Assembly (NCBI GenBank): GCA_947589435.1
Contig: CANQBI010000002.1
Coordinates: 886-64,885 of the forward strand
Reading direction: 5' to 3'
DNA length: 64,000 nt
DNA from: an uncultured Bacilli bacterium
GTDB lineage: Bacteria; Bacillota_I; Bacilli_A; RF39; UBA660
Shown piece after piece: positions 3,593-56,829 of the stretch. Below the pieces are notes generated by a model. That model saw nothing but the letters and a program-made list of their open reading frames with translations, did not search any database and had not been told where the DNA came from. Numbering within the stretch: position 1 is the first letter of the stretch; each line of letters begins with the position of its first letter. Both the position numbers and the translations under genes were made by a program.

Positions 3593-3635
3593 GATATTTG
3601 TCAAAAATTAGTAAAAATATATCTTGACAAATATC
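3593..3635. repeat. perfect 12-bp inverted repeat GATATTTGTCAA / TTGACAAATATC, 19-bp spacer
   Basis: The arms lie at 3593-3604 and 3624-3635. The right arm contains the -35 hexamer of the surface-protein promoter. Confidence 0.85.
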
Positions 3636-3654
3636 ATACGGGGGGGGGTATAAT
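3624..3654 (+). promoter_or_regulatory. sigma-A-type promoter with a G9 tract in the spacer
   Basis: TTGACA (3624-3629), then a 19-nt spacer ending in G9, then TATAAT (3649-3654). An AAGAGGA RBS and the ATG at 3683 follow. Confidence 0.7.
3640..3648. repeat. G9 homopolymer tract
   Basis: The sequence reads atacGGGGGGGGGtataat. It is one of only two G/C runs of 7 or more that I saw in the window. Confidence 0.95.
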
Positions 3655-3682
3655 TAGGACATAGAAAGGAAAGAGGAAAAAA

Positions 3683-5092
3683 ATGAAAAATTTAAAAATG
3701 TTTGCAATTGCTGTTATGGCATTCGCTGTAATGGCTATGGGTGTTCATGCTGATAATGTCGCAAGATATACTGATAAAGACGGTTATAAACATGAATTTA
3801 CTACTTTAACACAAGCTTTAGCAGATGTTAAAGATTCTGAAGAAAATGTAACTGTAACTGTTTTAAAAGATATTACTAATGAAACATTTACTGCCGTTAC
3901 AATCAGCGGTAAAGTTACACTTGATTTAGATGGACACAAGGTTTCTTTAACTGGTGGAAATATTAAAGTTGAGAAAGGTACTTTAGTAGTTACTGGTAAA
4001 GAAGGAAGTACAATTTATAGAACTGGAAATACTGGAGGGACTTTATTTGTTGTTCTAGGAAGAAGTTCTCATTTAACTGTTGATACAAATGTAACAGTTG
4101 GATCAAAAGATTCAACAGATACTGCTGTTGGATTATTTAGTGACAAGGGCGCTGCACAATTAGGAAGTGCTGTTAATGCTACAATTGATATTAAAGGAAC
4201 TTTATTATCTAAATCAGGATTTGCTTTCAGTGTTGAAGGATGTGTTGAAGAAGCAGAAAAAAATCCTGCTAAAGTTACAATCTATGATGGAGCAAAATTA
4301 GTTAGTAAAGAAGGCATGGCTTTATATCAAGCTGGTTATGCTATAACAACTATTGGAAAGGCTACAATTGAAGGAGATAGTGGTGTTGGCGCTAAAGCTG
4401 GTTCTATTACATTTAATGGAACTACTGTTACTGCTAAAGGTGAACACGTTGATGAAGCAGGAGATATGAATGGCGGAATCAATGCTGTTGGTGCTGCTAT
4501 TCAAGTAGAAAGTAGTGAAGAAGGAACAACATATGCAAGTCCAGCAACTATTACATTAAATGGTGGTACTTATACATCTGAAAAAACAAATGCAATAGTA
4601 ATTAACAACTGGAGTAAGACAAAAACTGCCTTAGATGAAAAATCAGTTATTGATGGTGGAGCTGTATTAAATAGTGCTGAAGATGAAGATGGTGAACCAT
4701 TACCTGGTATTGCTATTACTGCTGCTGAAAAAGATATAGCTGAAAAATTATTAACAAATCTTGAAGGCTTTGTTAAAGATGCAGAATTTAATGGTGCTAT
4801 TGTTGGAGATTTACTTGTTGGTGATAACACTAAAGATGCTAGTGCTATTCAAGCTACTTTAACAAAAGGTTCTAATGTTAACACTGATGATGAAGGTAAT
4901 ACTACTGTTGGTGGTAATACTGAAGGACAACAACCAGGAACTACAGAACCAGGAACAACTGGTGATGGAAATCAAGGTGGAACAGAAAACGTTAAAAATC
5001 CAGAAACTAATGATAATATCTTAGTATATGCTGGTCTAGGACTAGTAAGTCTTGCCTCTGTTGCTTTTACAGCAAAGAAAAGAGAAGACTAA
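3683..5092 (+). CDS. cell-surface protein with signal peptide and C-terminal sortase-type sorting signal (NPETN + TM + KKRED)
   Basis: The N-terminal signal MKNLKMFAIAVMAFAVMAMGVHA is followed by a Gly/Thr/Val-rich repetitive beta-strand-like body. The C-terminus is NPETNDNILVYAGLGLVSLASVAFTAKKRED. Confidence 0.75.
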   Translation: MKNLKMFAIAVMAFAVMAMGVHADNVARYTDKDGYKHEFTTLTQALADVKDSEENVTVTVLKDITNETFTAVTISGKVTLDLDGHKVSLTGGNIKVEKGTLVVTGKEGSTIYRTGNTGGTLFVVLGRSSHLTVDTNVTVGSKDSTDTAVGLFSDKGAAQLGSAVNATIDIKGTLLSKSGFAFSVEGCVEEAEKNPAKVTIYDGAKLVSKEGMALYQAGYAITTIGKATIEGDSGVGAKAGSITFNGTTVTAKGEHVDEAGDMNGGINAVGAAIQVESSEEGTTYASPATITLNGGTYTSEKTNAIVINNWSKTKTALDEKSVIDGGAVLNSAEDEDGEPLPGIAITAAEKDIAEKLLTNLEGFVKDAEFNGAIVGDLLVGDNTKDASAIQATLTKGSNVNTDDEGNTTVGGNTEGQQPGTTEPGTTGDGNQGGTENVKNPETNDNILVYAGLGLVSLASVAFTAKKRED

Positions 5093-16919: not shown

Positions 16920-18167
16920 ATGAAGTTTTATATTGAAACTTTTGGTTGTAAAGTAAATGCTTATGAATCAAATTATTTAAAAGAAGCCTTATTGAGTGAA
17001 GGCTTCTTATTTACACATGACTTAAATGAAGCGGAGATTGTTTTAGTTAATACTTGTACTGTTACCAATACTTCTGATAGTAAATGTAAAAAGTTTGTAA
17101 GAAAAGTAAAAAGAGAAAATCCTAAAGCTATTCTTGTGGTATTTGGTTGTAGTAGTCAAAATAAACCGGAAGAATATAAAGAGATTGGAGTAGACATTTT
17201 ACTTGGTAATAAAAATAAAGTAAAGATACCAAGCCTTATTAAAGATTATTTAAAAACTAAAGAAAAATATTACTATGTCGATAAAAATCGTGATTTAGAA
17301 TTTGAAAGTATGATGATAAATGATTTTAATCATACAAGAGCATTTATTAAAATTCAAGATGGTTGTGATAATTTTTGCTCTTATTGTATAATTCCTTTTA
17401 TGAGAGGTAAATGTCGCAGTAAAAACTTTGAAGAAATTATTAAAGAAGCTAAGGAACTTTCCAAAAACCATCAAGAAATAGTTTTAACGGGTATTCATAC
17501 CGGTTCTTATAGTGATAATGGTCATGATTTAGTCGATGTTATTAATGAATTATCTAAAATCGATAATATTAAAAGAATAAGACTATCTAGTGTCGAAATT
17601 ACCGAGTTAAATGCTAAGTTTATGGATATGCTTAAAACTAATGAGAAATTCTGTAATCATTTACATATCCCCCTTCAAGCTGGAAGTAATCACGTTTTAT
17701 CTTTAATGAACAGGAAATATAATATGGAATATTTCTTTAATAAAATAAAAGAAATTAGAAGTATTAGACCTGATATTGCTATTTCTACCGATATTATTGT
17801 GGGATTTCCAGAAGAAACTGACAAAGATTTTATGGAAACTTATGAAAATGCCAAAAAATTAGCATTTAGTAAAATACACGTTTTCCCTTATTCTAAAAGA
17901 GATGGCACCAAAGCTAGTCTAATGAAAGAAGTACCATCTATAGATAAATCTAAAAGGGACCATAAACTTCTTAATCTATCCGATATTCTAGAAAAACAAT
18001 ATCAAGATAAATTTATAGGTAAACCTTTAGATATTCTAATTGAAGAAGTAAAGAATGGTAAATCTATTGGACATTCTTCAAACTATATTAGAGTAGTAAT
18101 AGATAAAGAATTAACTAAGAATAAAATTTATAATATTATCTATGATGGTAATAAAATAAACTCTTAA
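16920..18167 (+). CDS. mtaB: tRNA methylthiotransferase, MtaB-like radical SAM enzyme
   Basis: The N-terminus is FYIETFGCKVNAYES and the radical SAM motif is CDNFCSYCIIP. Its position downstream of dnaJ matches yqeV in B. subtilis. The start is set after the AGGGTGG RBS. Confidence 0.75.
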   Translation: MKFYIETFGCKVNAYESNYLKEALLSEGFLFTHDLNEAEIVLVNTCTVTNTSDSKCKKFVRKVKRENPKAILVVFGCSSQNKPEEYKEIGVDILLGNKNKVKIPSLIKDYLKTKEKYYYVDKNRDLEFESMMINDFNHTRAFIKIQDGCDNFCSYCIIPFMRGKCRSKNFEEIIKEAKELSKNHQEIVLTGIHTGSYSDNGHDLVDVINELSKIDNIKRIRLSSVEITELNAKFMDMLKTNEKFCNHLHIPLQAGSNHVLSLMNRKYNMEYFFNKIKEIRSIRPDIAISTDIIVGFPEETDKDFMETYENAKKLAFSKIHVFPYSKRDGTKASLMKEVPSIDKSKRDHKLLNLSDILEKQYQDKFIGKPLDILIEEVKNGKSIGHSSNYIRVVIDKELTKNKIYNIIYDGNKINS

Positions 18168-18196
18168 GATAAGAATTAAAATATCTTATCTTTTTT
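18166..18196 (+). terminator. rho-independent terminator
   Basis: The stem AAGATAAGA / TCTTATCTT is followed by a T run. Confidence 0.75.
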
Positions 18197-18217
18197 ACAT
18201 TTCTAAAAATCTTCCTA

Positions 18218-18246
18218 TTGACTAAATAAAATAAATATTATATTAT
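18218..18246 (+). promoter_or_regulatory. promoter of cassette 1
   Basis: TTGACT, 17-nt spacer, TATTAT. A TCCTATT motif (18213-18219) overlaps the -35 hexamer. Confidence 0.5.
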
Positions 18247-18284
18247 TTAAATGTAAGGTAGAAGGATATTTTTTATTTGTAATT

Positions 18285-18306
18285 AATATTCGGTATTTAC
18301 AACATA
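18285..18306 (+). promoter_or_regulatory. conserved 5'-leader motif AATATTCGGTATTTACAACATA (copy 1 of 3)
   Basis: Related copies lie at 36428-36449 and 54588-54607. The consensus is ATAT(T)CGGTAT-N4-AACAT. Confidence 0.5.
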
Positions 18307-18355
18307 AGTATAAAATTAAATAAATATATAAATAATATAAAAGAGGTAAAAGAGT

Positions 18356-18445
18356 ATGAAGAAAGAGAATAAAAACTTAGTATTATATGTAGGATTAACT
18401 ATATTAGTAGTTCTAATAAGTAGCATCGGGGGGGGGTTATTGTAA
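18356..18445 (+). CDS. 29-codon leader ORF carrying a G9 tract (probable detached N-terminus of the next gene)
   Basis: An AAGAGGT RBS lies 9 nt before the ATG. The product is MKKENKNLVLYVGLTILVVLISSIGGGLL*. The G9 tract at 18428-18436 encodes GGG. The stop comes 2 codons later. Confidence 0.6.
   Translation: MKKENKNLVLYVGLTILVVLISSIGGGLL
18428..18436. repeat. G9 homopolymer tract inside coding sequence
   Basis: The sequence reads gcatcGGGGGGGGGttattg. Confidence 0.95.
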
Positions 18446-18572
18446 CACCCTAATATCTTTAGTATTCATACCATTTAATAATCTAAAATATAAACTTTAT
18501 AATATAAAAGAAAAATATAATAATTTAAAATATAAACGAGAAATAACCTATATCATTCTCGGTCTTTTTGTT

Positions 18573-19184
18573 ATGACTTTATTTAGAATAATAAGCACCA
18601 CTCATGCTTATTATAATTATGAGATGGCTCCAGTACCTATATTTACCAGTAAAGTTGGAAACTTTGCTGGTGAAGGAGAAACAGTAAAAGATGGCCCTTT
18701 AAGTGGTAAAAGTACAGATGTTAATGTTATATGGTATACTCAAATGCCAGATAATCCAAAGAAGTATAAAGAGAATAAAGAAGTACCAGTAACAGGATTT
18801 ACATTAAATCAAGATATATCTAATTGTTATCCTAAAAATAATGAAGACGGAACAACATATAATCCAGATTATAAAATAAGTGAAGATGGAACAGTAGATA
18901 TAACAGTATCCGAAACTAAACCAAATCAAATAGTATGTCGATTATATTATGATAGAGATAAGATATCAGATGTAATAGTATATGCTTATATTCAAGACAC
19001 AACTGGTGATAGAGAATATGAAGGAAATAAATATAAAATGAGTAGTACAATACCAACAGGAAAGACATATGTAGGATATAAATGTTCCAATACAAGTGTT
19101 GCCACCAATATAAATTACAATGATACAGATGGATTTACAATAGATACAGATGGACCAAATACATGTTATGCTTATTTTAAGTAA
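18573..19184 (+). CDS. cassette 1 protein A1: secreted protein with TasA/camelysin-like (SipW-type) signal-peptide motif, as annotated lacking most of its signal peptide
   Basis: It is a paralogue of 54608-55324. Shared features are THAYYNYEMAPVPIF..VGNF, two Cys-bracketed modules (..C..-x30-40-..VCRLYYD and ..CSN..-..CYAYF) and the C-terminus GPNTCYAYFK. The homologous N-terminal residues EKYNNLKYKREITYIILGLFV lie upstream of the first ATG. Confidence 0.6.
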   Translation: MTLFRIISTTHAYYNYEMAPVPIFTSKVGNFAGEGETVKDGPLSGKSTDVNVIWYTQMPDNPKKYKENKEVPVTGFTLNQDISNCYPKNNEDGTTYNPDYKISEDGTVDITVSETKPNQIVCRLYYDRDKISDVIVYAYIQDTTGDREYEGNKYKMSSTIPTGKTYVGYKCSNTSVATNINYNDTDGFTIDTDGPNTCYAYFK

Positions 19185-19197
19185 GGAGTGAAAATAT

Positions 19198-20439
19198 ATG
19201 AAAAAGAAAATAATCTTAAAATTAATAGTTATATTAATAACAATAGGAATAATCTATGAAGGGTATGGGATGATAAAAGAATTTAAAAAATCAAATAAAG
19301 TTTTAGAGGACATTAAAACAATAGATGTATTCAGTAAGAAAGATAAATCACTAGCTATAATGATACAAAATGATGGAATAAGCGCAGATGAAACAGAATA
19401 TGGCTGGCATGAGGCAGAAGATAGAAGTAAATGGCCAGATAAAAATACCTACACATATGCAGGAGCCGAGTGTACTGATAGTGAAGGAGTAAGTGTGCCA
19501 AGTAAAAATATTTTGTCATTTGATGAAACAACATATACAGCACACATTAAAACAAAACAAACCATATATTGTACGCTATACTTTGGAAAAGGAAGACATG
19601 CATTAGAAACATTAGACGCTCAAGGAGGACAATATTATGCAAATGGAAATAATACAGCAGTAGAAGGATTATATAGATTTAAAGGGACATATAGTCAAGT
19701 AACAAATAACTTTATCTGTATAGGAGGACCAAAAAACCCCGAAACATGCGGAAGTGTCGAAGGAAACAAATACTTATATAGAATAATAGGAGTAACAGAT
19801 GGGACCGAAGCAGCAGAAAGTAATTCATTAGGATTAGATAAAGGAATGCTAAAAGTAATAAAAGTCATACCATCAAGTACAAACCAAAAATGGGCTTCTT
19901 CTTCTAATAAATATGATAATTTCACATGGGACTATGAGCCTAGTTCTCAGACAACTGGAGCAATGGCGAGATGGACATTAAATAATACATTCTATAATGG
20001 ATTAGGAGGAGAAAAAAATTTAATAAAAGAGGTATATTGGTGGAAAGGAGATAGAAATAATGCACCATCAAGTGGAGCTGAAGCAAAAACAAGAACAAGT
20101 GAAAAATATTCAATAGGCTTAATGTATGCAAGTGATTATTATAATTCATGGACATATCCAACAGCCTCTTATGGGATTCACAACGATAGTTGGCTTCACC
20201 TTTCTCGAACTATGAGTGGAAAAACAAATACATATCAATCTAAATATGAATGGACCATGACCAGAGGTGGAGAAACCGTTTCTAGTATAATTGATGGTGA
20301 TGGTTTTGTATCCTATATAGATCTTACTTATTCGACTATAGTTCGCCCAGTATTTTATCTAAAATCAGATGTTGCTATAATGGGATTTGGAACAGAACAA
20401 AGTCCATACATAATAACATCTCCTCTAATAAATAATTAA
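19198..20439 (+). CDS. cassette 1 protein B1: membrane-anchored surface protein
   Basis: The RBS is AAGGAG. The N-terminal TM is ILKLIVILITIGIIY, followed by one Cys-bracketed module (AECTD...IYCTLYFGKG). The C-terminal domain carries LYRIIGV, GLMYASDY, SWLHLS, VRPVFYL...GFGTEQSPYIITS. By eye about half the residues are identical to B2. Confidence 0.7.
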   Translation: MKKKIILKLIVILITIGIIYEGYGMIKEFKKSNKVLEDIKTIDVFSKKDKSLAIMIQNDGISADETEYGWHEAEDRSKWPDKNTYTYAGAECTDSEGVSVPSKNILSFDETTYTAHIKTKQTIYCTLYFGKGRHALETLDAQGGQYYANGNNTAVEGLYRFKGTYSQVTNNFICIGGPKNPETCGSVEGNKYLYRIIGVTDGTEAAESNSLGLDKGMLKVIKVIPSSTNQKWASSSNKYDNFTWDYEPSSQTTGAMARWTLNNTFYNGLGGEKNLIKEVYWWKGDRNNAPSSGAEAKTRTSEKYSIGLMYASDYYNSWTYPTASYGIHNDSWLHLSRTMSGKTNTYQSKYEWTMTRGGETVSSIIDGDGFVSYIDLTYSTIVRPVFYLKSDVAIMGFGTEQSPYIITSPLINN

Positions 20440-36427: not shown

Positions 36428-36449
36428 ATATATTCGGTATATGTAACAT
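36428..36449 (+). promoter_or_regulatory. conserved leader motif copy 2: ATATATTCGGTATATGTAACAT
   Basis: See the copies at 18285 and 54588. Confidence 0.45.
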
Positions 36450-36544
36450 TTTAAATAAATTCTTGGGGCAGATAGAAATATTTGCCTTTTTCTTTTAATA
36501 TAAGAAAATTTATGATATAATCACTATATAATAAGGAGAGTATT

Positions 36545-38443
36545 ATGAACGACTTTAATTATGATAATGAGATAATTGAATTAGAAAGTGAAACGGAAGA
36601 AGAAAAAAAAGAAGAATTACTTGAAGAAATACCTAAAGAAAAGCCTCATAAAAAGAAGAAAAAGAGTTTAAAAGATTTTTGGAATAATTTAAATAAATGG
36701 CAAAGATTAGGAATTGTTATAGGTATTGGTTTAATTTTACTGGCTATTGCGGGGGTAATTATTTATTTTGTGGTCTTTAAAGGAAGTAAGCCAGAGGAAG
36801 AAGAAAAAGATCCCGTTATAGTGGAAAAAGATAACTATCGTTATGAAGATGGTAATTTAATATTCTTAGACCGTAACGAAGTAGAGTTAGGTAGATACGA
36901 ATGTAATGTCAAAGATAGTGAACAATGTCTAGTGGCTAAAAGTGATTATACAGGTGATGAAATCGAAAGAATAATGAATGTTAATGAACTTGGTGAAGAA
37001 ATCATTAAACCTAGTAAAATATATTTAGATAATTATGTTTTTGTGAAAGATGGGGAAGAGGTATTCTTATATGATATTAAAGGAAAAGATAAAGCTTTAA
37101 TGGTTCATAATTTTAAAGAATATTTAACGAGTAGAGATGTAATTGTCATATCTGATGAATCTGACCGTTATGGTTTAATTGAAATAACCGGCGAAGGTGT
37201 TAATTATTTAATTAGACCATCTTATGATAATTTAGCCATTGTTAATGGTAATTACCTTTATTTAGTCGCTAAAGATAAAGATACTTCTTACATTATTGAT
37301 AGTGCTTCTAAAAAGTTAAGTGGTAATATTAAAGGAGTTATTGCGAGTGCTTCTGATAGTTATGTTGTCAGCAAAGAAAATAGTAAATATATTTTATATG
37401 CTTTAGATGGCACGAAACTTTTAGAAGATTATGATTATATTGGCTTACATGATGGTATTATTTCTTTAGTTAGTAAAGGTCATTTATATTTAGTAAATAA
37501 TGATTTACAAAAATTATATGAAGAAGGAATTAGACTTACGAGTAGTGATTATGTTAAAAAGTATATCTATGATAAAGATAATAATTTAAAAGAAACAAAA
37601 GTGGCTTATGAAATAACTGTTAATGGAAATGAAGTTTTAGTTAATTTAGGAAGCAGTAGTGAGACCATTAATCTAAATGAAGGCAAAGTAAGTGGCACAA
37701 CTTCTTATATGAGTTATTTTGATGGTACTTTATACTTCTATAAAGATGATGAAAAACAAGATTTATTAAGTACTTATAAATGTGTTAATAAAAATGAGTT
37801 AAAAGATAATGCTATATTAGACAGGTGTACAATCTATACTAAAGATAATAAGTATAGTGGTATATATAACAACAACTATGTCTTTATATATGATAATTTA
37901 TCCAATACGGATGCCAAAATCTATTTATATGATTTAAAGACCAAAAAGAATAAAGGAACTTATAGTGATATTATCTTTGTAAATGATACTGATATGGATT
38001 TAGATATTAAACAAATTGATACGACATCCACCTATGTTATTGCGAAAAGTGCGACTGGAGAAAACTCCGGCAACTATGGGGTTATTGAAATAACGGATAA
38101 TAATGTTAAAGGGAAAGTGGAATTTAAATATAAAGAAATAAAAAATAATAATAAACATTATTTAATGGTTAATAAAGAAGACTCTTATAGTGTCTATGAT
38201 AGTAATTTTAAAAAGATAAGTAATGAATTTGATTATATTGATTTATATGATAAATACTATGTAGGTATTAATAACAATAGTTTAAATGTCTATAAATATA
38301 GTAGTGCTTTAGGTATTTTAAATAGTGATTTAGATGTTAAAGATAATAAATATGAAATTAAATTTGATGAAAAAGGTTTTGTTATCACCATTGATGATGA
38401 AGAATACAAATATGATTTAGAAGGATATAGTCGTTATGATTAA
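36545..38443 (+). CDS. membrane-anchored protein with WG-like beta repeats
   Basis: An acidic N-terminus and the TM LGIVIGIGLILLAIAGVIIYFVVF are followed by recurrent segments such as RYGLIEITGEG..YLIRPSYDNL and NYGVIEITDNNVKGKVEFKYKEI. Confidence 0.45.
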   Translation: MNDFNYDNEIIELESETEEEKKEELLEEIPKEKPHKKKKKSLKDFWNNLNKWQRLGIVIGIGLILLAIAGVIIYFVVFKGSKPEEEEKDPVIVEKDNYRYEDGNLIFLDRNEVELGRYECNVKDSEQCLVAKSDYTGDEIERIMNVNELGEEIIKPSKIYLDNYVFVKDGEEVFLYDIKGKDKALMVHNFKEYLTSRDVIVISDESDRYGLIEITGEGVNYLIRPSYDNLAIVNGNYLYLVAKDKDTSYIIDSASKKLSGNIKGVIASASDSYVVSKENSKYILYALDGTKLLEDYDYIGLHDGIISLVSKGHLYLVNNDLQKLYEEGIRLTSSDYVKKYIYDKDNNLKETKVAYEITVNGNEVLVNLGSSSETINLNEGKVSGTTSYMSYFDGTLYFYKDDEKQDLLSTYKCVNKNELKDNAILDRCTIYTKDNKYSGIYNNNYVFIYDNLSNTDAKIYLYDLKTKKNKGTYSDIIFVNDTDMDLDIKQIDTTSTYVIAKSATGENSGNYGVIEITDNNVKGKVEFKYKEIKNNNKHYLMVNKEDSYSVYDSNFKKISNEFDYIDLYDKYYVGINNNSLNVYKYSSALGILNSDLDVKDNKYEIKFDEKGFVITIDDEEYKYDLEGYSRYD

Positions 38444-39341
38444 TAAAAAGACTGTCCTGGCGACCATTATTGCTCTTTTAATAATTTTTGTTCCTTTAAC
38501 AATTGCGTCATACTTCTTAAAAGAAAAAGAAAACCCTTTTGATAAAAATCCGGGACATGATTTTTATTATAAAGAGATGCTGTGGTTTTATGAAGGTAAT
38601 GATTTAATTAATACATATCATTGTAATACCACTTCTTGTGATTATGCCGAATATGTTATTGATGATGAAGATATTAATTATTATAAAGATGGTAATCTAA
38701 AAAAGAGTGAAGTTATAAATAATAATTATGTTTTTATTAAAGATGGGGCTTTAACTAATCTTTATAGTTTAGATTATGGTAAAGTTTTACAAAGTTATAA
38801 ACAAGTAAAAACTTATAATACCAAAGTTTTTGATAATACTTATATTTTACAAAATCAAGATAATTTATGGGGAGCTATCAGTGTTTCGGAAAACATTAAT
38901 AGCGTTTTACCTTTTGAATATAGTTTTGTGGGATTAAGAGATAATTTAAATGAAGATGGCTCTTTAAATACCGATATGTTTATTGTATCTAAAAATAATA
39001 AATGGTATTTAGTAAGTAAAGATAATGAAAAAAAGTCTTCGGAGTTTGATAGCAAAATAGTTGATTTCAATGATAAATTAATTGTTACTAAAGGAAGTAG
39101 TTATCATATTTATAACTATGATAAAAATGAATATTTAATTGATTATAATATCAATGATTATGGGTTAGTTAAAGATTATCTTTTAATTATTAGTAATAAT
39201 ATGTTATATATTTATAAAGATATTAGTAATGGTTATTTAAAGAGTTATAATGTTTCCAGTGGTAAGTTAAATACCGAAATAGAGAATAACAAAATAATCA
39301 TTAAAATTGGGGAAAATGTGATTGATACTCTTGATGTTTAA
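38436..39341 (+). CDS. membrane-anchored protein with WG-like beta repeats (paralogous to previous gene)
   Basis: It overlaps the upstream stop by 8 nt. The TM is VLATIIALLIIFVPLTIASYF. Repeat-like segments include LWGAISVSENINSVLPFEYSFVGL and KWYLVSKDNEKKSSEFD. Confidence 0.45.
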   Translation: MINKKTVLATIIALLIIFVPLTIASYFLKEKENPFDKNPGHDFYYKEMLWFYEGNDLINTYHCNTTSCDYAEYVIDDEDINYYKDGNLKKSEVINNNYVFIKDGALTNLYSLDYGKVLQSYKQVKTYNTKVFDNTYILQNQDNLWGAISVSENINSVLPFEYSFVGLRDNLNEDGSLNTDMFIVSKNNKWYLVSKDNEKKSSEFDSKIVDFNDKLIVTKGSSYHIYNYDKNEYLIDYNINDYGLVKDYLLIISNNMLYIYKDISNGYLKSYNVSSGKLNTEIENNKIIIKIGENVIDTLDV

Positions 39342-54207: not shown

Positions 54208-54244
54208 AAAAATAACAGAATGTTAAAAATCTGTTATTTTTTTT
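54208..54244. terminator. bidirectional terminator
   Basis: The stem AAAAATAACAG / CTGTTATTTTT has flanking A/T runs. The stop of the XRE gene lies in the right arm. Confidence 0.75.
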
Positions 54245-54467
54245 CGTTGGTAATAATTATTTTTAAATTATGTTTTTTGGCAATATCCATTAACGTTTCA
54301 AAATAGAATCTATTAGAGCCACTTTCAATTTTTTTAATGCCATGATAACTTTTTCTGTTTAATTCATTAGCCAACTCAGTTTGGGTAAGTCCTGTATATT
54401 CTCTTACCATTCTAAATACTTCTTTTGGTTCATAATCATTTGCAACTATTCTCATTTTATCACTCAT
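54234..54467 (-). CDS. XRE-family helix-turn-helix regulator
   Basis: The HTH is VREYTGLTQTELANELNRKSYHGIKKIESG. It is divergent from cassette 2. Confidence 0.8.
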   Translation of the reverse strand: MSDKMRIVANDYEPKEVFRMVREYTGLTQTELANELNRKSYHGIKKIESGSNRFYFETLMDIAKKHNLKIIITNEKK

Positions 54468-54473
54468 TTCAAG

Positions 54474-54566
54474 ACCTATTTTAATATATAAATAGAACCT
54501 ATTAGTTAAAATAGTACTTGACAGTTCCTATTTAAAATATTATTATAATAATAGATACTAATAGGT
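54474..54566. promoter_or_regulatory. operator-like repeats (A/T)CCTATT x3 plus inverted AATAGGT around the cassette 2 promoter
   Basis: The copies are ACCTATT at 54474 and 54497, TCCTATT at 54527, and inverted AATAGGT at 54560. ACCTATTAG (54497-54505) and CTAATAGGT (54558-54566) form a 9-bp inverted pair. Confidence 0.5.
54518..54546 (+). promoter_or_regulatory. promoter of cassette 2
   Basis: TTGACA, 17-nt spacer, TATTAT. The architecture matches the cassette 1 promoter. Confidence 0.55.
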
Positions 54567-54587: not shown

Positions 54588-54607
54588 AATATCGGTATTA
54601 GCAACAT
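54588..54607 (+). promoter_or_regulatory. conserved leader motif copy 3: AATATCGGTATTAGCAACAT
   Basis: It lies about 35 nt downstream of the predicted transcription start, as in cassette 1. Confidence 0.45.
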
Positions 54608-55324
54608 ATGAAAGGATGTGATAGTTTGATAAGAGAAAAATTAAAAAATGTGAGGTATAAAAAAGAAATAATAGCAATTATAGTTCTTGTTATTTTTGCA
54701 ACCGTTATTATCACTTTAAGAGGAACCCATGCTTATTATAATTATGAGATGGCCCCAGTTCCTATATTTACAGGCAGGGTAGGAAACTTTAGTGGTAAAG
54801 GTGACACCTCAAATTTAGATAAACCAACAGATGTTAATTTAATGTTTTATGTTCAAGATATAACAAATCCAAAAAATTACACTATCATGGATGGTCCACC
54901 TGTATTGGTATCAGGATATATTATTAGTGACAAAAAAAGCAATTGTATACCAGTTAATGGAACATACGATAAGATTGATGATAAAGTATATTCTATTTCT
55001 GAAGACGGAACAGTAACAGTTAAAATAAGTCAAAGTAAACCAAATCAAGTTGTTTGTCGAATTTATTACGATTATGAAAAAGATTTAACAAAAGAAGATA
55101 TTATAGTTTTTGCTTTAAAAGAAGATGATTTAGGAATGATTATTTATAATGACAAACATTATATAATGAGCGAAACTATACCTAGTACTGGTTTTACTTA
55201 TAATGGCTCAAACTGTAGTAATACAGAAATAGCAACTGAAATTAACTATAATACTACAAATGGGTTTACTTTTAAAACTGAAGGTCCAAATTTATGCTAT
55301 GCCTATTTTAATAAAACAAATTAA
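54608..55324 (+). CDS. cassette 2 protein A2: secreted protein with TasA/camelysin-like (SipW-type) signal-peptide motif
   Basis: The n-region and TM are KKEIIAIIVLVIFATVIITL, followed by RGTHAYYNYEMAPVPIFTGRVGNF. It has two Cys-bracketed modules and the C-terminus GPNLCYAYF. The true start may be the in-frame TTG at 54626, 9 nt after AAAGGA. Confidence 0.7.
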   Translation: MKGCDSLIREKLKNVRYKKEIIAIIVLVIFATVIITLRGTHAYYNYEMAPVPIFTGRVGNFSGKGDTSNLDKPTDVNLMFYVQDITNPKNYTIMDGPPVLVSGYIISDKKSNCIPVNGTYDKIDDKVYSISEDGTVTVKISQSKPNQVVCRIYYDYEKDLTKEDIIVFALKEDDLGMIIYNDKHYIMSETIPSTGFTYNGSNCSNTEIATEINYNTTNGFTFKTEGPNLCYAYFNKTN

Positions 55325-55336
55325 GGAGATGAAATA

Positions 55337-56614
55337 ATGAAGAAAGAAGTATATTTAAGAGTTATAATAATTGCTTTGGTATTATTATCGTGTTATGAAA
55401 GTTATGAGTATTTTTGTGATTTAAGAGTTTCTAATAAGGTATTTGAAGATGTTAAACAAGTAGAGGCTTTTAATGATAAGGAGAAAGCACTAACAATAAT
55501 GATTCAAAATGATGATGATTACGATTATCATGAAGCTCCAGATAGAAGTAAATGGCCAAGTTATACAGAATATACATATGCGGGAACAAAATGTGAAGAT
55601 GCATCAGGTAATAACATAGAAAATACTAGACAGTATGTGCAATTTGATGAATTAAGTAATATGGCAACAATTACCACAAAAAAAACTATATACTGTACTT
55701 TGTATTTTTCAAAAGGACGTCCAGCAGCTGAAGTATTGCCTAAGAATGCCGTAGGTGGAAACGGAGTAACAGTATTTACAGAAAATGATGTAGATGGCCT
55801 ATACAGATTTGCTGGTACATATACAGAAGTTAACAATAATTTTCTTTGTTTTGGCGCAGTAACAAATCTAGAAGAATGTGTAAGTTCCACTGGTAATAAA
55901 AATAAATATCTTTATAGAATAATTGGAATAGTAAGTAAAGATGATGATACTTTAGGTCTAAAAAAAGGTCAAATGAAAATAATTCGTGCAAATTATTCAA
56001 GAAGCGGATCAAATATTTGGGCTAATACTGGTGATCCAGTAAATTTAGATTGGGAACAAACTATTGGTACTTTATACAATGTTACGTCTTTTTATAATAG
56101 TTTAGATCAAAAATTAAAAAATTTAATAACAACTCAATATTGGTATAAAGGAGATATAAAAAATGATCCTCCAACAACACAACCGAAAATTCGCACATCA
56201 AAACAATATTCAGCAGGTTTAATGTATGCTAGTGATTATGTTAATTCTTGTCCAACAGGTGTAAAAACTTATGGTAGTAAATGTTATTGGTATCAAAAAC
56301 CTATTCCTAGTTGGTTACATTTAAGTCATGGACATTCGAATGTTAGTCTTGGTCAATACTATAGAGAATTGACCAAGACACATTATGGTAGTTATACTAA
56401 CTCATATACGTACATGGTGGAATACCATCATTGGGAAATATCTGCTGATTCTGATTATGATGATGGCCAATTAGTTTTTAATGATGATCGAAATTGCGAT
56501 GTAGGTACTTATATACGACCCGTTTTTTACCTTGATGCCTCTGTTCCTATTGCTGGTTTTGGTACAGAACAAAGTCCATATATTATTACAAGTATTGCTG
56601 GACCACAAGGATAA
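55337..56614 (+). CDS. cassette 2 protein B2: membrane-anchored surface protein
   Basis: It is a paralogue of B1. Shared motifs are SNKVFEDVK, IMIQND, DRSKWP, IYCTLYF, GLYRF.GTY, NKYLYRIIG, GLMYASDY, SWLHLS, RPVFYL, GFGTEQSPYIITS. Confidence 0.75.
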   Translation: MKKEVYLRVIIIALVLLSCYESYEYFCDLRVSNKVFEDVKQVEAFNDKEKALTIMIQNDDDYDYHEAPDRSKWPSYTEYTYAGTKCEDASGNNIENTRQYVQFDELSNMATITTKKTIYCTLYFSKGRPAAEVLPKNAVGGNGVTVFTENDVDGLYRFAGTYTEVNNNFLCFGAVTNLEECVSSTGNKNKYLYRIIGIVSKDDDTLGLKKGQMKIIRANYSRSGSNIWANTGDPVNLDWEQTIGTLYNVTSFYNSLDQKLKNLITTQYWYKGDIKNDPPTTQPKIRTSKQYSAGLMYASDYVNSCPTGVKTYGSKCYWYQKPIPSWLHLSHGHSNVSLGQYYRELTKTHYGSYTNSYTYMVEYHHWEISADSDYDDGQLVFNDDRNCDVGTYIRPVFYLDASVPIAGFGTEQSPYIITSIAGPQG

Positions 56615-56829
56615 TAAAAAATATACACATTCAAAAAAGCGGGAACTTTCAATTTTATTTTAAGAATTTGATAATTTCGCTTGTTTTAATGCATATAATT
56701 TGATAAAATACTATTGGCTATTTAAGTCAAATATACATTAATATTTAGCCTGCGCCTAGTGCTTATTAATAATAAGTGGTAATGGTATTAAATATTAAGA
56801 AGAGAAAACGAAAGGAAGAGTGATTATTT

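Follow-up and report, generated by a model that had tools for sequence, protein, structure and literature searches.

Two paralogous two-gene cassettes in an uncultured Bacilli genome

We analyzed a 64,000-nucleotide stretch of DNA (hereafter the window; contig CANQBI010000002.1 of assembly GCA_947589435.1) from an uncultured Bacilli bacterium, which carries on its forward strand two two-gene cassettes, each coding for a pair of predicted exported proteins, A and B. All four open reading frames (ORFs) lie where a first-pass annotation, made from the sequence alone, had placed them: cassette 1 comprises A1 (noted at 18573-19184) and B1 (19198..20439, +), and cassette 2 comprises A2 (listed as 54608..55324, +) and B2 (55337..56614, +). 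The paralogy asserted there is far above chance, with 49% identity between A1 and A2 (E 6e-70) and 42% between B1 and B2 (E 4e-96). A recount returned exactly the 42 identical nucleotides of 44 given for 18603-18646 versus 54728-54771, and the 17-mer ACAGAACAAAGTCCATA, shared near the B stop codons, is present at 20392 and 56564 and nowhere else in the window.

The start codons assigned to the two A genes did not hold up. The A1 frame is open from 18438 (18438..19184, +), the noted ORF being its 3' part, and ATG 18573 cannot be the start because the hydrophobic anchor would be halved; the A1 codon homologous to the 'M-IKEK' start of other copies is AAT (AAT-ATA-AAA). Likewise, ATG 54608 is an unlikely start for A2, since this codon sits in a conserved element of the 5' untranslated region (5'UTR). 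Translation of A2 most likely starts at TTG 54626, which has an AAAGGA ribosome-binding site 8 nt upstream and whose counterpart in the orthologue P0047 begins MIREK.

A large family almost confined to rabbit-gut Bacilli

The cassettes had been taken for a pair of diverged copies; they proved to be two members of a family rather than a private duplication. When 185,579 species genomes were scanned, 73 family loci were recovered, all of them within eight metagenome-assembled genomes (MAGs) of rabbit-gut origin designated 'uncultured Bacilli bacterium', with as many as 29 copies in Lapin-021 bin69 and 24 in Lapin-017 bin11. Searches of 5.8 billion proteins returned 60 homologues of A and 26 of B, none of them named, and the A profile matched only 122 proteins among 1.84 billion representatives. 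The gene for B lies about 15-210 nt 3' of that for A at essentially every locus long enough to hold both. In about ten loci, and in proteins such as P0153 and P0201, an A-type N-terminus and a B-type domain end are found on one chain, and the fusions P0090 and P0095 combine an A N-terminus, a DUF6273 (B-type) domain and A modules in a single polypeptide. Given these single-chain fusions, we posit that A and B work together.

Judged from these searches, A is a new protein family, built from a repeatable Cys-bracketed beta module, of which distant relatives contain three to seven each. We also observed four to six such modules in the proteins P0115, P0128, P0130 and P0140, behind a pilin-like MxxKGF(V/I)STSLIYTFF segment. 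These proteins have no NCBIfam prepilin match, and in other bacteria the module may also be mounted on a scaffold resembling type IV pilins.

Architecture of the A proteins

The predicted layout of A as a signal anchor and a THA/YY motif (the slash marks the presumed cleavage position) followed by two Cys-bracketed modules is borne out by the alignment of 28 members and by an AlphaFold model. In A2 numbering, C113 and C203 are invariant, and C150 and C230 are conserved in at least 90% of the members. In the A2 model (pLDDT 75), residues 18-39 form a helix and residues 40-65, in which the motif falls, are disordered; two beta domains follow, at 76-156 and 165-236. Conservation is highest just after the anchor, in the sequence T-H-A-Y-Y-N-Y-E-x-x-P-V-P-I-F-T-x-K-V-G-N-F, with A42, Y44, I53, V58, G59 and F61 invariant in the family alignment; across 61 instances of the motif its T, A and Y show little or no variation, and distant relatives show A-Y-A/Y-Y or S-H-A/F-F at the same position. 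In the window it corresponds to THA/YYNYEMAPVPIFTSKVGNF of A1 (18600..18665, +) and, by motif scan, to THA/YYNYEMAPVPIFTGRVGNF of A2 (54725..54790, +). THA/YY, in which positions -3 and -1 are taken by small residues, is consistent with cleavage by signal peptidase I; what follows it would be the N-terminal segment of the mature protein.

Neither A1 and A2 nor B1 and B2 have a meaningful match in Pfam or NCBIfam (Pfam scan with E up to 1), the matches to TraK_N and Pox_A28 at E of about 0.02 being well below the cutoffs. Sequence-profile searches of the PDB with A and B gave only a chance-level match to trichosurin (E 0.0045), and Foldseek comparison of the A2 and B2 models with the PDB yielded no significant match, those of A2 being to generic cadherin-like tandem beta-sandwiches (best E 0.017). 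The C-termini of A (ending ...CYAYFNKTN) and B (ending ...SPYIITSIAGPQG) carry no LPXTG-type sorting signal and lack a hydrophobic tail, and no G/F..E prepilin motif precedes the hydrophobic segment at the N-termini of either protein.

The B proteins and their DUF6273 head

B consists of an N-terminal anchor and one Cys module, as had been proposed, in which C120, C171 and C181 are invariant and C86 is conserved in at least 90% of 25 members (B2 numbering), followed by a large domain. A conserved disordered segment, NKVLEDIKTVDVF, lies beside the membrane; it recalls the segment AFHDIETFDV of TapA. The N-terminus of B2 (55337-55400) reads ...ALVLLSC/YESYEYF and fits the lipobox pattern of lipoproteins; the Cys is absent from B1 and from all other B homologues, and we regard it as probably incidental.

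The large domain had been called uncharacterised; the profile matches of its homologues and its fold instead identify it as a divergent DUF6273 in kind. DUF6273 (PF19789) is matched by 11 of the 25 full-length B homologues, with a best E of 2.4e-14. B1 and B2 themselves have no match to PF19789, and the homologues that do align over 72-99% of B2 with E of 1e-39 to 1e-91. When the B2 model was compared by Foldseek with the predicted viral structures of BFVD, the top match was unnamed (E 1.3e-6), the nine best had probabilities of 0.80-1.00, and six of these nine were named phage DUF6273 proteins (E 1.8e-3 to 1.5e-2). Published work calls the domain C-type-lectin-like and places it in the hypermutated heads of phage receptor-binding proteins (PMC10743442); a gut IgA protease carries it at its N-terminus (PMC12402451).

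A leader ORF with a poly-G run upstream of A1

A1 lacks a start codon of its own and, as assembled, sits one frame off a short leader ORF, MKKENKNLVLYVGLTILVVLISSIGGGLL (18356..18445, +; 29 codons), which offers the only start codon available to cassette 1. The Gly codons of the leader are formed by a run of nine G (18428..18436, +), which we propose to be a slipped-strand switch: G9 stops the leader after GGGLL, and only G8 and G11 join it to A in frame. The module of leader, G run and the following TTATTGTAACACCCTAATATCTTTAGTATTCATACC is found in 14 loci from three genomes, with G9 in 12 of them, G8 in L037 and G11 in L012. At all 14 the frame one base on from the run is open into an A-type gene, that is for about 45 codons without a stop at 28% GC, and translations of the same 14 show no start codon at the site homologous to the 'M-IKEK' start; the first in-frame start falls within the hydrophobic segment in the two loci checked, namely the window and L032.

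Across the locus set examined for motifs and G runs (918 kb, 28% GC) there are 18 runs of at least eight G, against about 0.2 expected by chance according to our own estimate; all 18 are on the coding strand, and 17 occupy 5' coding or promoter-spacer positions. This pattern is the signature of contingency loci, legible in the reading frames themselves, through which expression would be switched, and cassette 1 would be OFF as assembled. The first-pass annotation had overlooked this poly-G switch and A1's lack of a start codon, along with the XRE regulator, the family size and the cassette replacement described below.

Additional G runs were observed in and beyond the window. One G9 (3640-3648) stands in a 19-nt promoter spacer (TTGACA, 10 nt, G9, TATAAT; 3624-3660) upstream of an ORF (3683-5092) for a 469-aa LPXTG-type surface protein with a VHA/D signal peptide and a C-terminal NPETN, transmembrane segment and KKRED (LPXTG_anchor 16.0 bits, cutoff 15.9), and this run has the appearance of a second poly-G switch in the window, one that would act on transcription. 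In more distant MAGs, comparable promoters with the run in the spacer, TTGACAcc-G8/G9-tgtTATATAAT, lie about 150 nt upstream of A-B cassettes (L043 4801-4808 and L050 9850-9858). Moreover, in a DUF6273 gene at L001 (16441-17906), which is likewise preceded by the conserved 5'UTR element, a G9 interrupts the signal peptide ...LILAIGGG/VTYAYFTL...; as assembled its reading frame is broken, and a run of G8 or G11 would restore it.

A search for A1 in other assemblies recovered one, L078, and the B proteins of the other poly-G loci were not among the multi-contig entries. Positions 200-640 of L078 correspond to 18160-18600 of the window, with an identical A1 ORF and the same G9, and the upstream flank holds a gene for a 198-aa protein instead of MtaB, which suggests that cassette 1 sits in more than one genomic context.

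Promoters, a shared 5'UTR element and an XRE-type regulator

Cassette 2 has no leader; divergent from it is instead a gene for a 77-aa protein of the XRE family of helix-turn-helix (HTH) regulators (54234..54467, -), whose match to HTH_3 (E 0.0012) is below the Pfam cutoff. At 11 other loci A is immediately preceded by a gene for a homologue of this XRE protein, and all 11 lack the poly-G leader. Promoter-like sites precede both cassettes: TTGACT, 17 nt, TATTAT for cassette 1 (18218..18246, +; 10 of 12 consensus positions, a consensus match only, the regional count of such sites being not above that in shuffles) and TTGACA, 17 nt, TATTAT for cassette 2 (54518..54546, +; 11 of 12).

Common to the two classes of cassette is the conserved, promoter-proximal 5'UTR element, AATATTCGGTATTTACAACATA in cassette 1 (18285..18306, +; by motif scan) and, one base shorter as read directly, in cassette 2 (54588..54608, +). 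Its core has 45 matches in the 918 kb, of which 35 stand 120-360 nt upstream of a same-strand A motif and one more at 28 nt. The distances from the element to A form two classes that are offset by the length of the leader module. An Rfam search of the whole window and of the cassette 1 leader returned no family, so that the element is not a known RNA; the element, also cited as TTCGGTATTTACAACA, may be an operator or a leader-RNA signal. A further copy of the core at 36433-36450 (TTCGGTATATGTAACA), followed by a terminator-like hairpin, was treated as a chance or irrelevant occurrence. It lies upstream of genes for two unrelated membrane proteins (36545-38443 and 38436-39341).

We also noted two repeats among the family loci, neither of which adjoins the cassettes of the window. 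A palindromic repeat, gacaaagttcgacagaaatgtcgaattttgtc...ttttgtcgaacg, is found 3' of the B stop codons in L007, L009, L018, L019, L026, L032, L037, L068, L070 and others, and a GC-rich repeat, tatcgcccaaggcggc...ggcgtgccggt, in L005, L013, L015, L028, L041 and L064. Each of the two might represent a small mobile element or a site of recombination or regulation.

Replacement of cassettes and of B heads between near-conspecific genomes

Comparison with orthologous loci confirmed the hypervariability of the cassette interiors that had been suspected from the two copies in the window. The locus orthologous to cassette 2, L027, is recognizable by its flanking genes for a WG-repeat protein (98% identity), the XRE protein (100%) and RpsB (92%). 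The DNA of the two loci is 96-100% identical up to about 54690, inside the codons of the signal anchor, falls to about 50% across A2 and B2, and is 100% identical from about 56690, which delimits a replaced segment (54690..56690, +; bounds approximate); at the protein level, identity is just 46% for A and 35% for B. At the orthologue of cassette 1, L014, flanked by genes for MtaB (96%), LexA (99%) and monogalactosyldiacylglycerol (MGDG) synthase (98%), DNA identity is about 90% over A1 and the initial two thirds of B1 and only 40-70%, with indels, in the mosaic part of B1 (19890-20420).

Rates of synonymous (dS) and nonsynonymous (dN) substitution between the window and its orthologues were computed by the method of Nei and Gojobori. 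The flanking genes show dS of 0.17-0.28 and dN of 0.004-0.018 (dN/dS 0.01-0.11), A1 shows dS 0.36 and dN 0.034 (dN/dS 0.09), and the last 190 codons of B1 show dS 1.10 and dN 0.44 (dN/dS 0.40). Because of these values, we interpret the B1 head as containing imported sequence rather than as having only evolved faster. Thus, relative to a near-conspecific genome, cassette 2 is wholly replaced and the head of B1 is mosaic. In the codons of the A motif, two rare choices are nearly fixed across the 61 copies, with ATA for Ile in 55 of 61 (genome usage 19%) and AAC for Asn in 45 of 54 (10%); this hints at a homogenized 5' end, which would be the recombination anchor.

A SipW-type signal peptidase and the resemblance to TasA

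The first-pass annotation had likened the signal region of A to the SipW-cognate signal peptides of TasA and camelysin, and had reported no gene for such a peptidase in the window. The latter is upheld by two negative results, a tblastn search of the window with the family-linked SipW and motif scans. Of the former, one part stood, in that THA/YY is in register with TasA and a SipW gene lies beside relatives of the cassettes, and another did not, as no homology to TasA or camelysin was detected.

A search of the rest of the family revealed a SipW/archaeal-type signal peptidase I encoded downstream of family members in L032 and L066 (TIGR02228, 86 bits, cutoff 51.85), with the Ser/His-type motifs SESMEP, THRV and GDNN. 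Its gene lies 1-1.3 kb 3' of the family member, with one gene, X, in between: the order in L032 is A, B, X, the SipW-type peptidase and rubrerythrin, and in L066 two XRE genes, a gene for a 609-aa fusion of an A N-terminus and DUF6273, X and the same peptidase. X (L032 12090-12872; L066 12321-13103) codes for a conserved 260-aa membrane protein that matches no Pfam or NCBIfam family, and its membrane-adjacent FYINNYYDKK is rich in aromatic residues, as are the corresponding parts of A and B. The loci L032, L014 and L027 are all in Lapin-021 bin69, and the proteins flanking L014 and L027 are 92-100% identical to those of the window. Since L032 thus shares a MAG with near-conspecific counterparts of the window's own cassettes, the window organism very probably carries a SipW-type peptidase gene too.

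The TasA chain in the solved fibre structure (8AUR) starts AFNDIKSKDATFAS, and mature A would start YYNYEMAPVPIFTS. The A motif and the TasA cleavage region align without gaps, T-H-A/Y-Y-N... standing against the mature TasA N-terminus A-F-N-D-I-K-S-K-D-A-T-F-A-S, and N3, F12 and S14 of the mature protein are common to both; the TasA signal peptide ends in GGGTWA. The first residues of TasA have been described as a donor strand that builds the fibre, with TapA thought to give the first strand (PMC9674648), and in BsaA of Clostridium perfringens a disordered N-terminal loop has been modelled as a donor strand (PMC11580942). Comparably, in the A2 monomer model disorder is predicted for the conserved segment that follows the presumed cleavage site. 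On the other side, PF12389 (TasA/camelysin, Peptidase_M73) is matched by none of A1, A2, B1 and B2 in Pfam or NCBIfam, the PDB sequence-profile search with A returned no TasA, and no TasA entry is among the 50 best PDB fold matches listed for A2, a comparison weakened by the floppy N-terminus and the two-domain model. As far as sequence and fold comparisons go, A is not a TasA homologue, and a SipW/TasA-class signal on A is plausible, with genetic support from related genomes. A literature search for SipW together with phase variation returned nothing relevant.

A model for the cassette family and its rivals

We posit, with a probability of about 0.6, that the cassettes belong to a family of variable surface-protein loci that is specific to a lineage of uncultured rabbit-gut Bacilli and has greatly expanded there. 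A would be exported via the Sec pathway, held by its signal anchor, and probably processed by the organisms' SipW/archaeal-type signal peptidase, with cleavage after T-H-A. The mature protein would begin with about 20 near-invariant residues (YYNYE..PVPIFT.KVGNF), which would not fold by themselves, and continue with two variable beta-sandwich modules bracketed by disulfides. B would be held by its N-terminal hydrophobic segment and present one conserved module resembling those of A and a hypervariable DUF6273 head, which is probably used for ligand binding. The N-terminal segment of A might be a docking or donor strand that ties it to the conserved module of B or to more A subunits, and a variable structure of A plus B would be displayed through this docking. 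Variation could then be layered. One layer would be stochastic on/off switching by slippage of the poly-G run at the leader end, for which the reading frames supply the logic; another would be control of cassettes such as cassette 2 by the divergent XRE-type regulator, as suggested by the conserved linkage; and a further one, seen in the strain comparison, is recombination between strains or paralogues that replaces either an entire cassette or a part of the B head. Taken to its full extent, the model would describe an unrecognized antigenic-variation system of a Gram-positive gut commensal, in which about 30 interchangeable two-gene cassettes per genome each build a SipW-processed, strand-docked fibre or adhesin with an A stalk and a lectin-like B head, few being expressed at once by way of the leader and poly-G run or the XRE regulator, and are exchanged at their conserved signal-peptide and 3' ends. 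This extended version is offered tentatively, as one that we think has the odds against it.

Several observations weigh against the mechanism outlined above. Variation in run length was seen between paralogues rather than within a population at one locus, and cassette 1 in its only other assembly (L078) has the same G9. In the ON state, the leader-A fusion would have two hydrophobic segments ahead of the cleavage site, a topology that the model leaves unexplained. The SipW loci L032 and L066 are orthologous and amount to about one observation; with some 25-30 cassettes per genome, the linkage of SipW to one of them is weak evidence, chance proximity being not negligible. A LepB-type motif was not seen in the 918 kb, and the SipW-type enzyme may be the only signal peptidase I here, processing all exported proteins. 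TIGR04088 (SipW-cognate), searched with E up to 10, matched none of A1, A2, six distant A relatives, B1, B2 and P0086, though such short models are easily lost to the HMMER filters and the presence of this model in the library copy was unchecked. Finally, comparison of A module 2 with the B module by hhalign (E 0.0043) gave a probability of 8%, too weak for a homology of the two modules, which was set aside.

The closest rival concerns what the cassettes build. The first-pass annotation had suggested a fibre subunit with a membrane anchor or assembly partner by analogy with tapA-sipW-tasA, and in this form A would be a TasA-like fibre subunit polymerizing by donor strands after SipW cleavage, with B as a TapA-like anchor and nucleator. 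The T-x-A/aromatic..N........F.S pattern in register with mature TasA, a conserved N-terminal segment of A with predicted disorder in the monomer, a property also described for BsaA (PMC11580942) and TasA (PMC9674648), the linkage of SipW to family members in L032 and L066, the conserved disordered segment NKVLEDIKTVDVF of B beside the membrane, and an XRE regulator adjoining cassette 2 in the manner of SinR, which controls tapA-sipW-tasA (PMC9674648), all speak for it. Nevertheless, A has no Pfam or NCBIfam match to camelysin/TasA, no TasA is among its 50 best PDB fold matches listed, and it is made of two Ig-like modules and not of a jellyroll of the 5OF1/8AUR kind; the strict 1:1 pairing of A and B and the single-chain fusions would fit a heterodimeric adhesin equally well, and thirty different fibres per genome would be unusual. 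We consider this fibre reading to be partly supported, a possibility that on balance we doubt.

Other rivals concern the G run and the source of the diversity. That nearly all copies have exactly G9 is unexpected under free length drift, and nine G match the length of the RNA-DNA hybrid, which allows realignment during transcription; G9 might then not be OFF at all, with slippage of RNA polymerase always yielding some in-frame mRNA and the run setting a low constitutive expression in place of a heritable switch. We hold this to be unlikely, given the existence of G8 and G11 alleles and of promoter-spacer G runs in the same genomes, which can act only at the DNA level, and given that 'most off, few on' is expected of a multigene variation system anyway. 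Alternatively, cassette 1 might be a decaying pseudogene, its G9 run the product of a frameshift or of misassembly, with cassette 2 as the sole functional one. A1 is indeed without its own start codon and out of frame with the sole upstream ATG, as are 12 of the 14 copies of the module and the independent L078 assembly (G9) by their run length. Yet the leader, the poly-G run and the 45-codon open linker are kept in 14 paralogues from three genomes, stop-free at 28% GC; two copies are in frame (G8 and G11); A1 is under purifying selection relative to its orthologue (dN 0.034, dS 0.36); and the 18 runs of at least eight G against about 0.2 expected, all on the coding strand and 17 in 5' coding or promoter positions, are hard to reconcile with decay, which makes this explanation quite improbable. 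As the DUF6273 domains of phages are hypermutated (PMC10743442) and the distal head is the most variable part of B, a diversity-generating retroelement was also entertained. It was rejected, and is in our estimate the most improbable of these alternatives: neither B 3' region has a second copy in the window that resembles a template repeat, the differences comprise many indels and saturated synonymous sites (dS 1.1) instead of adenine-specific substitutions, and no reverse transcriptase lies next to any cassette inspected.

Significance and comparison with known systems

How uncultured, small-genome gut Bacilli present their surface to the host, to phages and to neighbouring microbes is little understood. 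The cassette family unites a TasA/SipW-like, unannotated export and assembly signal, a phage-type lectin-like head, and putative homopolymer switching with cassette replacement. If the proposal is true, it provides a defined and testable model of surface variation in commensal Gram-positives and a new protein family for A, and it would also furnish a marker for contingency loci in MAGs, where gene callers truncate or miss such genes. The antigenic-variation reading, if true, would make the family an uncultured-Bacilli counterpart of Neisseria pilin/Opa or Mycoplasma Vsp variation.

Among systems of secreted assemblies, tapA-sipW-tasA of Bacillus subtilis resembles the cassettes in a signal peptide ending in T-x-A before aromatic residues, in a conserved mature N-terminal segment as a candidate assembly strand, in a second co-encoded protein with its own N-terminal segment and an XRE-type regulator nearby, and in a SipW-type peptidase encoded with family members (here in related genomes). 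It differs in that A is without sequence or fold homology to TasA and B without homology to TapA, A consisting here of two Ig-like modules with Cys pairs and B carrying a DUF6273 head, and in that dozens of cassettes are present per genome, one of them beside sipW. To our knowledge, neither poly-G switching nor cassette replacement has been reported for tasA. The sipW-bsaA-bsaB-bsaC operon of C. perfringens likewise codes for SipW-dependent secreted matrix proteins with a disordered N-terminal loop modelled as a donor strand (PMC11580942). However, BsaA and BsaB are distantly homologous to TasA, are locked through isopeptide bonds and come from a single operon, whereas the cassettes constitute a multigene family with no TasA homology and no evidence of isopeptide bonds. 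The phage DUF6273 proteins ('tentaclins' and related tail proteins) share with B the use of DUF6273 as the hypervariable part; in phages the domain is borne on tail structures and varied by retroelement hypermutation, whereas here it is chromosomally encoded, anchored to the cell and varied by recombination.

With regard to switching, homopolymeric-tract contingency loci are exemplified by the poly-G genes of Campylobacter jejuni and by surface genes of Neisseria and Haemophilus. As in those loci, runs of G8-G11 in an AT-rich genome lie in the 5' coding part or promoter spacer of surface genes, and their length sets the frame; unlike them, the run here ends a dedicated leader ORF, a portable module lending its start codon, and occurs in a Gram-positive gut commensal in combination with a family of about 30 cassettes. 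The Vlp, Vsp and Vsa lipoproteins of Mycoplasma are switched by promoter poly-A runs or by site-specific inversion. They too form large paralogous surface families in a low-GC relative of the Bacilli, with a conserved 5' end, a variable body and homopolymer switching, and the cassettes differ from them in their two-gene organization, in signals of the signal-peptidase-I type without a family lipobox, and in that no invertible element was detected. The leader-ORF design, in which a leader lends the start codon, is unusual among such switches. The kinds of system involved, SipW-class secreted assemblies and homopolymer contingency loci, are known ones, and the A protein family itself is new.

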